This document shows, piece after piece, positions 7,238 to 16,366 of a stretch of 46,610 nt of DNA. The notes beneath the pieces were generated by a model, which was not told the DNA's origin, did no database searches, and was given only the letters and a program-made list of their open reading frames with translations. Every line of letters starts with the position of its first letter. The first letter of the stretch is position 1. Position numbers and translations under genes: made by a program. Origin of the DNA: a virus (Duplodnaviria; Caudoviricetes); IMG/VR virus record IMGVR_UViG_3300049172_000060, positions 1 to 46,610 of that record. The stretch is one strand, 5' to 3'.

Positions 7238-7373
7238 GTAACACACTGAGCCTCCCACCAATTATGACAGGGGTGGCTTTAACTGGCTTACCGCCAGGCC
7301 AACTCCCTTCGGTCGCTAGCCAGTCGGCAAACCAGCCTGCCATCCCCCGTCAAATTGGCGCTCAGCGTGTTAC
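7238..7373 (-). ncRNA. candidate rod-shaped structured RNA or processing signal
   Basis: nested stems TAACACGCTGAGC/GCTCAGTGTGTTA, GCCAATT/AATTGGT, TGACGGGGG/CCCCTGTCA, GGCTGGTTTGCCG/CGGTAAGCCAGTT; G-U pairs on the minus strand. Confidence 0.55.
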
Positions 7374-7900
7374 TTAACCACGTACCCCTTACGGAAATTG
7401 CCCGGCTCGGCGAATTCGATGAGATCGTCCTCGCGCAGAAGTGAAAACACTTCGCTCGCGGTCTTTGCGGTAATTTCCTTTTCAGCCATCATTTGCTTTT
7501 GGGTGACGAAATTATCCCGCGACACGAAACGCTTGTTAGTCTTACTGGAGATTTCTTCGAAATACTCCTGAGCAATTCGACCAGACAGGTGCTCAACATT
7601 GAACCTAGGCCCAACTTTTCCAGTCGGCTCAAGCTGGCCTTCAATCCTGGTCATTGCCTTCTTTGTTGCCTTTGAAGGGCCGAGCTCATTGATTCGATTG
7701 CGTGCCGGACGCTCATTGCGAACCGAATGCAGCATTGAGCCGATTTCAGCCTTCCTGAAACCGGTCATTGACTCGATTGTCTCGAAATCGAAGTCACGGT
7801 TGAGCTTATCGAGAAGCTTGGCGATTTTGTTCTTTGCTCGCTGCTCGTTGTAGTAACGTACTACTGCGAGCAGTTCCTTTTCAGCGGACGTGAGTGCCAT
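7370..7900 (-). CDS. hypothetical protein, possibly DNA-binding (HTH-like segments)
   Basis: 176-aa ORF; FETIESMTGFRKAEIGSML and a C-terminal winged-helix-like segment. Confidence 0.6.
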   Translation of the reverse strand: MALTSAEKELLAVVRYYNEQRAKNKIAKLLDKLNRDFDFETIESMTGFRKAEIGSMLHSVRNERPARNRINELGPSKATKKAMTRIEGQLEPTGKVGPRFNVEHLSGRIAQEYFEEISSKTNKRFVSRDNFVTQKQMMAEKEITAKTASEVFSLLREDDLIEFAEPGNFRKGYVVK

Positions 7901-8134
7901 TTAGTCCTCCGAGATCTGAACGCTGACATTGTGCTTGTTGGCGATGGGGAACGTGACCACATCACCATCTACCAGGCTTTCGAAGTTGTTGGTGACAACC
8001 TCCTGGCCGTAGGTGTTTTCAAGTTCGCGAAGCAGCGGGTACTTACTTTCGTTTGGGTTGGTTTCGAAGCTGTTCTCGGGAATCTTCTTATCGAGAACCC
8101 GCAGAACATACTTCACTAGCTTGACATTCGCCAT
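7901..8134 (-). CDS. hypothetical protein
   Basis: MANVKLVK start after GAAAGG; the upstream track extension overlaps a tRNA-like element. Confidence 0.7.
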   Translation of the reverse strand: MANVKLVKYVLRVLDKKIPENSFETNPNESKYPLLRELENTYGQEVVTNNFESLVDGDVVTFPIANKHNVSVQISED

Positions 8135-8158
8135 TTGATGGTGCCTTTCACTGGGGAG

Positions 8159-8210
8159 TGGACGTGTGGGATTCGAACCCATTTAGCCAACCATCTAATT
8201 GGCCACGCCC
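8159..8210 (-). ncRNA. miniature D-armless tRNA-like RNA with alanine identity elements
   Basis: GGGCGTG / GCCAATTAGATGGTTGGC hairpin / TAAA / TGGG-TTCGAAT-CCCA / CACGTCC-A, giving G1:C72, G2:C71, G3:U70, A73. Confidence 0.6.
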
Positions 8211-8217
8211 TACCTAT

Positions 8218-8358
8218 TTACTTGTTCGGCATCAGAGCAATCGCCGCAGCAAAGAAGCCAGCGACAAACCAAACGCCACGAGTGACATTGACCTCAAGGC
8301 GAGACATGCTGACCACTCGGTCAGACTTCTTCATCCAAGCCGAAATCGCGTTAACCAC
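8218..8358 (-). CDS. small membrane protein (46 aa, not in track)
   Basis: GTG after GAAAGG; MVNAISAWMKK...GVWFVAGFFAAAIALMPNK with a hydrophobic C-terminus. Confidence 0.6.
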   Translation of the reverse strand: MVNAISAWMKKSDRVVSMSRLEVNVTRGVWFVAGFFAAAIALMPNK

Positions 8359-8394: not shown

Positions 8395-8506
8395 TGGCCC
8401 CGTCGGGATTCGAACCCGATGAAATGACCTGGAACGACAAACAATTAGCGGAGACTGGAGCCTTAACGCTAACCATTTGGCTTTCATTTCAATTCCTAGC
8501 GGGGCC
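8395..8506 (-). ncRNA. tRNA-like RNA resembling a tmRNA tRNA-like domain
   Basis: acceptor GGCCCCG/CGGGGCC-A, T-arm TCGGG-TTCGAAT-CCCGA, stemless GG-containing D-loop, long irregular central arm. Confidence 0.65.
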
Positions 8507-8533: not shown

Positions 8534-8866
8534 CTAGATAGCCGGAATCAAGTGCGGGTAACCCCACGGCTCTTGAGTCTCGACCAATACATGTCCGTCG
8601 CCACCGATTCGACGAAAGTCCTTACTGAACTTCATGCAGTAAGGACCGACCGAATCGCCGCCCATTCCTCCACGCTCTACAACCTCTTCGCGCGTGGGGA
8701 TTTCCCATTCCTCTTCGGTGTAATACTTCCCACCCTTCTTGAAGAGAATCACCTTTGCCTTAGGTCGTTCAACCTTTGGTGAAGTGAGCGAATCAATCGC
8801 CAACTTTTCACCGGGCGGGTATGGTGTACGTCCGTGCTCGCTGAATTCAGCGTCGTGGCTTTGCAT
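8534..8866 (-). CDS. hypothetical protein
   Basis: 110-aa ORF with LFKKGGKYY and PWGYPHL motifs typical of small actinophage proteins. Confidence 0.7.
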   Translation of the reverse strand: MQSHDAEFSEHGRTPYPPGEKLAIDSLTSPKVERPKAKVILFKKGGKYYTEEEWEIPTREEVVERGGMGGDSVGPYCMKFSKDFRRIGGDGHVLVETQEPWGYPHLIPAI

Positions 8867-9034
8867 TTACCTACTCTTCTTTCGCGGCTTGACCTGGGCT
8901 GAAATTGTAATACCTGGGCCTTCGGGGTAATTTGGTTCCTTCTTCGCTAGATCCATTGCCTCGTTTGCACTGTACGCTTTGATTTCCCAGCGGGTGAAAT
9001 TGTTTACCTTCACCAGGTAGGTTTTGCGATTCAA
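8867..9034 (-). CDS. hypothetical protein (55 aa, not in track)
   Basis: TTG start; MNRKTYLVKVNNFTRWEIKAYSANEAMDLAK...; abuts both neighbours. Confidence 0.6.
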   Translation of the reverse strand: MNRKTYLVKVNNFTRWEIKAYSANEAMDLAKKEPNYPEGPGITISAQVKPRKKSR

Positions 9035-16127: not shown

Positions 16128-16139
16128 CGAATTTGGCCC

Positions 16140-16366
16140 GCGCGACCCAATGGACTCGAACCACCTGCAATCGCGCAGCGCTGCAATTCAAATGTAAGGC
16201 AGGTCAAACAATGCCAAGTCGGGAGTAAACCCGTAAGGGAGGTACGCGCAGAATGCACGCGCACACTCAATCCTCTCTTGGCTGTCGTCCGTGTTGGCCC
16301 GACACCGAGAACATTACGACTGGGGGCTACTAGGTGCAAAAATTCCACCCGCTTTTCCAGCCGCGC
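16140..16366 (-). ncRNA. candidate 227-nt RNA closed by an acceptor-like stem and T-arm
   Basis: GCGCGGCT/GGTCGCGC terminal stem, GGTGG-TTCGAGT-CCATT T-arm, multibranched interior. Confidence 0.45.

Follow-up and report, generated by a model that had tools for sequence, protein, structure and literature searches.

Compact tRNA-like units can be excised from longer RNAs, as in the eukaryotic mascRNA and menRNA (RF01684), in which a unit of ~55 to 60 nt is cut out by RNase P and RNase Z. Plant mitochondria have t-elements, non-canonical tRNA-like structures that retain a conserved T arm. In the available text of Forner et al. (2007, PMC1920247), their ends correspond to mRNA ends produced by RNase P and RNase Z; the released pieces gain non-encoded C and A residues (PMC1920247). 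Bacterial RNase P cleaves model substrates composed of an acceptor stem and a T arm and is considered to count out 12 bp from the T-loop (PMC11143913, as available), and RNase Z and the A-adding enzymes gauge distance from the elbow (PMC4919913). Prokaryotic tRNAs are described, with few exceptions, as having a 12-bp acceptor-T stack (PMC5389517). Some tmRNAs lack a decoding part altogether; in the accessible descriptions, the TLD-only tmRNA of mycobacteriophage DS6A (PMC4131195) and the reduced tmRNAs of jakobids (PMC3590771) have an acceptor stem and T arm with G3·U70 and A73 and neither an anticodon nor a tag frame.

The locus that we compare with these systems, element A, comes from an uncultured soil phage. 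The window (the whole stretch of DNA analysed, a 46.6-kb phage record) has genes for terminase, portal, capsid, helicase, primase and endolysin, among others. We infer an actinobacterial host from two genes: the capsid protein shares 42-46% identity with its counterparts in Cellulosimicrobium phage DS1, Microbacterium phage Shocker, and Arthrobacter phages Jasmine and Adat, and all 320 endolysin matches were to phages of Streptomyces, Mycobacterium or Gordonia. Element A belongs to a run of small leftward genes located upstream of the helicase gene, and its parts and flanking open reading frames (ORFs) are as follows:

8159..8210, minus strand: element A, a 52-nt anticodon-less tRNA mimic with a 7-bp acceptor stem, an inner hairpin, a 4-bp T stem and N73
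8204..8210, minus strand: acceptor 5' strand (G1 = 8210, G3 = 8208), invariant in all three copies
8186..8203, minus strand: inner hairpin of 18 nt, with 3-4 pairs common to all copies and UGG in the loop
8167..8181, minus strand: T arm, a 4-bp stem with a canonical 7-nt T-loop (8171-8177)
8158..8166, minus strand: acceptor 3' strand (U70 = 8162), with an unpaired A at 8159 and a C at 8158
8218..8358, minus strand: 46-aa ORF with a hydrophobic C-terminus, whose stop codon ends 7 nt ahead of element A
7901..8134, minus strand: 77-aa ORF that begins 24 nt past element A

A purine-rich, ribosome-binding-like motif (8144-8149) lies ahead of the 77-aa ORF. The 46-aa ORF has no Pfam family, and the ORFs at 7370-7900 and 7901-8134 had no relative in viral contigs when used as queries for protein-anchored searches. 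A coding role for an ORF at 7901-8182, whose ATG falls inside the T arm, was rejected, since in the related record G001 this ATG is followed by an in-frame stop. The sequence of the locus is reproduced in a contig from a second study (independent soil run X2, depth ~2.5), which spans 8150-8300 without a single different letter. The contig graph of the source run is interrupted at 7849-7878, where a side branch of low depth (3.9 versus ~500-640) is probably a rare variant or an error. A blastn search of the 2.2-kb region against annotated phages returned no match, and short blastn queries matched through the T arm only. A search of sequencing runs listed no RNA data set containing the locus, which has no bearing on whether it is expressed.

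A preliminary description of this DNA gave the coordinates, strand, letters and fold of element A correctly, with seven acceptor pairs, a short hairpin and a canonical 7-nt T-loop, and the acceptor stem is indeed followed by an A and then by no encoded CCA; a 4-nt linker makes up the remainder. That description overlooked that the T stem has only four pairs, and hence that the acceptor-T stack is 11 bp (7+4) rather than the canonical 12 (7/5). The predicted fold has a free energy of -22.4 kcal/mol (z = -2.57 for a 60-nt stretch), and 3 of 200 shuffles folded as stably. When the window was shuffled with dinucleotide frequencies preserved and searched with a descriptor written post hoc, once the element was known, any 7-bp acceptor stem plus T arm within 40 nt appeared in 2 of 1,000 shuffles, and in none of the 1,000 did that combination also include an inner hairpin or the G1/G2/G3·U70 letters. 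ARAGORN called no gene at element A, as had been expected; the element has a single inner hairpin and no cloverleaf. Lowering the ARAGORN threshold gave 1,910 calls in nine genomes and was uninformative, and an Rfam search of the whole window found no match at element A. The label "D-armless" given in the preliminary description is open to doubt. The inner hairpin of every copy has a short stem with UGG in the loop (read by eye), as in D-loops, which suggests that it is a D-arm relic and that the anticodon arm is more likely the missing one; against this, the usual two-base connector is missing, and the GG of two copies can form pairs inside the hairpin.

Two further copies were found in related actinobacterial podoviruses. 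One, at 1500-1549 of locus L015 (minus strand, record G001), was the single homologue among six loci from a pattern scan of viral contigs, and the other, at 8938-8987 of locus L165 (plus strand, record G006), came from a helicase-anchored scan that also yielded six loci. A strict pattern scan of viral sequences found none, and a covariance model (R1) with the three copies as training found no additional copy in 32 phage loci; its best non-training matches were a gene annotated "tRNA-OTHER" in Curtobacterium phage Parvaparticeps (31.5 bits) and a phage tRNA-His (28.4 bits). The strict pattern had no match in 185,579 species genomes. Its relaxed form returned 34 loci in the genome scan, 22 of them tRNA-Sec genes by ARAGORN and none A-type, and a metagenome scan covering 11 of 64 parts, in which tRNA-Sec genes dominated, returned no A-type locus among 118. 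With the window counted, element A is present in three of seven complete related genomes (two more records are incomplete) and missing from the other four, including the nearest by helicase identity. No full cloverleaf occupies its place in any relative examined, and ARAGORN found no tRNA in the scanned regions of the seven complete genomes.

All 14 counted base pairs are intact in all three copies (42 of 42 cells). One T-stem pair (in L165) and one inner-stem pair have changed on both sides, and the acceptor stem is constant; a fourth inner pair also varies by eye (A-U, G-C, U·G) but was left uncounted because an alignment gap displaces it. The covariation across these three sequences does not reach significance (51 of 500 shuffles), although slid controls pair at only 36-60%. 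The copies are 71-79% identical to one another, compared with 37-58% for their 100-nt flanks, and the helicases of these genomes are only 64-66% identical. In the G006 copy, the ensemble favours 6+5 over the 7+4 seen elsewhere; the constant is therefore the total of 11 stacked pairs. Base 73 is A in two copies and U in G006, followed by C in all three. Each copy lies between genes in the coding-strand orientation, starting 7 nt past a stop codon and ending 21-29 nt short of a start codon. A purine-rich, ribosome-binding-like motif comes just after it; the flanking genes differ, and no partner gene is common to the three loci. A tRNA-like fold with a conserved T-arm motif thus recurs at gene boundaries. 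Element A is a real, conserved tRNA mimic, non-decoding as the preliminary description held, and the check proposed there, conservation of G3·U70 and the T-loop in related phages, gave G3·U70 in all three copies with the T-loop kept. It is apparently undescribed: the literature searched, whose coverage leaves out most subscription journals, held no description of it.

The preliminary description credited element A with the complete alanine identity set and called it a natural alanyl-minihelix. In bacterial tRNA-Ala this set is given as A73, G2-C71, G3·U70, G4-C69 and G20, with G3·U70 the major determinant (PMC9976931, as available). When position 8210 is taken as G1, element A shares G1:C72, G2:C71 and G3·U70 with tRNA-Ala and with synthetic Ala mini- and microhelices (PMC9976931), the latter two pairs in all three copies, and A73 in two of three. 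Unlike tRNA-Ala, it has C4:G69 in all three copies, no assignable G20, U73 in one homologue, and 7+4 (or 6+5) stacked pairs instead of 7+5. The identity set is therefore partial, and the minihelix claim retains the wobble pair but is weakened by U73, C4:G69 and the 11-bp stack. Among 82 distinct non-Sec tRNAs from the fetched loci, a non-random sample of mostly phage tRNAs, G3·U70 occurred in all three tRNA-Ala and in none of the 79 others, while G4·U69 occurred in 7 of these 79; thus, the register matters. Counted with a 12-bp ruler, the RNA would instead begin with a mismatched pair and carry G4·U69 and C73; with an 11-bp stack, the mature ends, and hence the wobble position, depend on the register chosen. 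The register with 8210 as G1 is favoured by the G1:C72 pair and by the tmRNA model alignment, and the N73-C pattern would suit the RCCA contact; on balance, we lean somewhat toward this register. An RNA released from this site might be alanylated.

Among described systems, element A would work most like the plant mitochondrial t-elements. It too is a non-canonical tRNA-like structure with a conserved T arm; unlike the t-elements in the available account, it belongs to a phage of Actinobacteria with host enzymes, is 50-52 nt long, carries an Ala-type wobble and has predicted ends. It resembles the DS6A and jakobid tmRNAs in having an acceptor stem and T arm with G3·U70 and, in two of three copies, A73, but no anticodon or tag frame, and the DS6A example is likewise from an actinophage (PMC4131195). 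Unlike the TLD-only tmRNA as there described, it has a stemmed hairpin, not a stemless D-loop, after the acceptor, and an 11-bp stack. The Rfam tmRNA model (RF00023) aligned to element A with the D-loop columns deleted, its scores (17.2 and 11.4 bits) were far from the gathering threshold of 47, and ARAGORN reported no tmRNA. Against RF01684, the G001 copy scored 13.1 bits, compared with a gathering threshold of 42.5.

Irregular tRNA genes of cluster-EA Microbacterium phages and of Parvaparticeps come from actinophages as well. They are intergenic and share G2:C71, U70, A73 and mostly C4:G69 with element A; they differ from it in their length (67-83 nt), 7/5 stack and remnant anticodon arm, in their siphovirus carriers, and in being annotated as ordinary tRNAs. 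In the accessible text of the published accounts, a single tRNA-Ala is reported for several cluster-EA phages (PMC7302621), and the EA4 anticodons are listed as AAA and CGG (PMC6856279). We read 12 cluster-EA loci (L173-L184, three of them near-identical), picked by BLAST with two queries and from the table in PMC6856279. All 12 units have a T arm and acceptor with an irregular anticodon arm. Pair 3:70 is G·U in seven, A-U in four and G:C in one; C4:G69 is present in nine, and A73 and U70 are each present in 11, with both retained in all 11 non-EA1 units. Actinophages therefore do contain Ala-type acceptors with C4:G69, from which element A could plausibly derive, and the variation at 3:70 indicates that loss of the wobble need not disrupt the fold. 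The shared ends suggest that element A may be homologous to these units; tRNA-His and the 3' halves of tRNA-Sec are rival sources. The Parvaparticeps tRNA-OTHER combines G3·U70 and A73 with a D arm and an anticodon arm that is degenerate. In the cluster-EA phages, the locus lies before DNA polymerase I, the units are annotated as Ala, Phe, Pro, OTHER or nothing, and several have an Ala-anticodon-like triplet in a displaced loop. Unannotated tRNA-like units are also present in the interval from the AAA-ATPase/recombinase to the primase gene in Parvaparticeps (L168, ~2650-2750) and Shocker (L002, 36095-36160); these two seem to have a common internal motif upstream of the T arm.

A second mimic sits 185 bases upstream of element A:

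8395..8506, minus strand: element B, a 112-nt tRNA mimic with a 7/5 acceptor-T stack and C3:G70

In element B, an 8-nt GG-containing stemless loop and a long helix replace the D and anticodon arms, giving it the TLD outline without G3·U70. We found eight B-type copies in six records: the window, G001, G002, G004 (two), G005 (two) and G008, with G004 and G005 near-identical. The loci include L005 (8386-8492), L035, L007, L009 and L167 (8817-8914). Their T stems covary, their long helices are unrelated, and the units share G2:C71, C4:G69, A73 and the following C with element A. Pair 3:70 is C:G in four copies, G:C in two and U·G in two, and G·U in none of the eight; the acceptor pairs of the G008 copy are the same as those of the tRNA-Leu of DS1. 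A relaxed B pattern returned 15 viral loci, of which 11 were ordinary tRNA-Lys or tRNA-Arg genes. Within this phage group, element B is arguably more widespread than element A. In six of the seven complete genomes, A, B or both lie within ~2-3 kb upstream of the helicase gene, and all 11 A and B copies are on one strand relative to neighbouring genes at the loci read. The spacing between A and B, in the window and in G001, is 185-250 nt. The seventh complete genome, with neither A nor B, has a long near-perfect intergenic hairpin in that place (L166, ~8640-8690), possibly an RNase III site or a terminator.

The preliminary description offered four roles for element A, and of these it is the processing signal that we tentatively adopt. 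We give somewhat less than an even chance to the reading that element A is a t-element-like signal for RNase P and 3' trimming, with probable descent from tRNA-Ala. A leftward polycistronic transcript would pass through element A in the sense orientation, host RNase P would make the 5' cut and host tRNA 3'-trimming enzymes the 3' cut, and this cleavage would punctuate the long transcript and free an RNA of 50-55 nt, to which CCA may be added. Descent from a tRNA-Ala-like unit would account for G3·U70, and alanylation of the released piece would be possible, yet not the selected trait. A consensus scan found no promoter or terminator at the ends of element A, although the promoter scan is weak (7 promoter-like sites, compared with 8.1 expected). 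Under any model, then, both ends of a discrete RNA would have to be made by cutting, so processing is common to this reading and to its leading rival, in which the released RNA was itself selected for alanylation, as a non-decoding alanyl carrier or a decoy for AlaRS, EF-Tu, SmpB/tmRNA or tRNA-targeting defences. We chose the cutting mark because the kept features, the acceptor-T stack and T-loop, are those that tRNA-processing enzymes read, and because the Ala wobble is not universal; the intergenic, coding-strand position of all three copies and the lack of G3·U70 in the B-type units also favour it. Several observations run against a mark for cutting: the stack, at 11 bp, falls short of the 12 bp by which RNase P, RNase Z and the A-adding enzymes would measure, the acceptor stem including G3·U70 is invariant beyond what such a mark needs, no non-Ala tRNA checked (0 of 79) has this wobble, the covariation falls short of significance with three sequences, and A and B, so close together in two genomes, seem redundant for one job. 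These constant G3·U70 and G2:C71 pairs are also what the alanyl carrier has in its favour, together with the weak tmRNA alignment in the matching register, the Parvaparticeps gene with G3·U70 and A73 as best non-training match of R1, the retention of U70 and A73 in the non-EA1 cluster-EA units, and the precedent of DS6A and the jakobids. We nevertheless consider it unlikely. One copy has U73, C4:G69 replaces the bacterial G4-C69, and the 12-bp ruler would give G4·U69 (found in some non-Ala tRNAs) and C73; EF-Tu is described as recognising the 12-bp branch (PMC5389517, as available), and the stemless D-loop required for SmpB binding (PMC3968760) is lacking. Furthermore, element A is absent from most of the complete genomes, its three loci have no partner gene in common, and G3·U70 is missing from 8 of 8 B-type mimics and from 5 of 12 cluster-EA units. 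No aminoacyl-transferase family was detected among 54 window ORFs with Pfam or 55 with PHROGs, most ORFs being without any family. The broader proposal, an actinophage family of non-decoding Ala-type mimics, ranging from near-complete cluster-EA units whose anticodon arm is free to the 50-52-nt form, that would be cut by RNase P, CCA-tailed and alanylated to serve as decoys or alanyl donors, with element A as an 11-bp-branch alanyl-minihelix paired in two genomes with a non-chargeable, TLD-shaped B, is rather doubtful.

Instead of being released, the fold could stay uncut in the mRNA and act in cis, as an exonuclease barrier, in coupling translation from the stop codon to the ribosome-binding site or as the site of a T-loop-reading protein. 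The constant 7 nt to the upstream stop codon and the close next start would suit this, and nucleases may cleave a non-canonical stack of 11 bp poorly. However, a plain hairpin would suffice as a barrier, whereas every A and B copy retains processing features, namely, a canonical T-loop, G1:C72 and an unpaired N73 with C after it, and we regard a cis role as improbable. A functionless, decaying remnant of tRNA-Ala, of tRNA-His or of the 3' half of tRNA-Sec would explain the patchy presence; the related phage DS1 has two intact tRNA genes, both ends of element A align with the phage tRNA-His (28.4 bits), and tRNA-Sec 3' halves, selected by the pattern, align with up to 44.5 bits. Decay is quite improbable given 14 pairs that remain intact in three copies with double-sided changes, despite the divergence of the helicases and flanking genes, and given the lack of ARAGORN tRNAs in the relatives' scanned regions. 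Sites of the attP type typically contain T-arm fragments, and element A could in principle be such a DNA feature, or a chance fold. The ORFs scanned with Pfam and PHROGs include no integrase family, the strict pattern was absent from the species genomes, none of the 1,000 shuffles gave the full fold, the A and B copies keep one strand relative to neighbouring genes, and the conserved pairing largely refutes both; we consider either very improbable. Should the cutting mark be correct, actinobacterial phages would use tRNA mimics to punctuate their messages, as happens in mitochondria, and such units would be missed or mislabelled by tRNA finders, as the assorted cluster-EA annotations illustrate. 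Were the piece alanylated, it would offer a natural test of the minimal size of an aminoacylated RNA in a bacterium and of whether the 12-bp ruler can be broken. The window phage is uncultured, but the general question can already be addressed in cluster-EA phages, which are cultured on Microbacterium foliorum.

Another T-loop structure was found in the early region of the window:

16138..16178, minus strand: element C, a 10-bp stem, 3-nt bulge, 5-bp stem and T-loop in an early non-coding region

Element C is present in three genomes, namely, the window, G001 (~10920) and G007 (L166, 3273), with the 3-nt bulge conserved and with compensatory changes. It is related to element A but separate. 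It is part of a non-coding stretch of 700 nt in which conserved hairpins are also found past a terminator, and it may belong to a larger non-coding RNA. In DS1, a lone 7-bp T-loop hairpin directly follows tRNA-Glu (L001, 24390-24410). Finally, a 17-base stretch is inverted on either side of the terminase start in the window (22672, minus strand, and 22806, plus strand).
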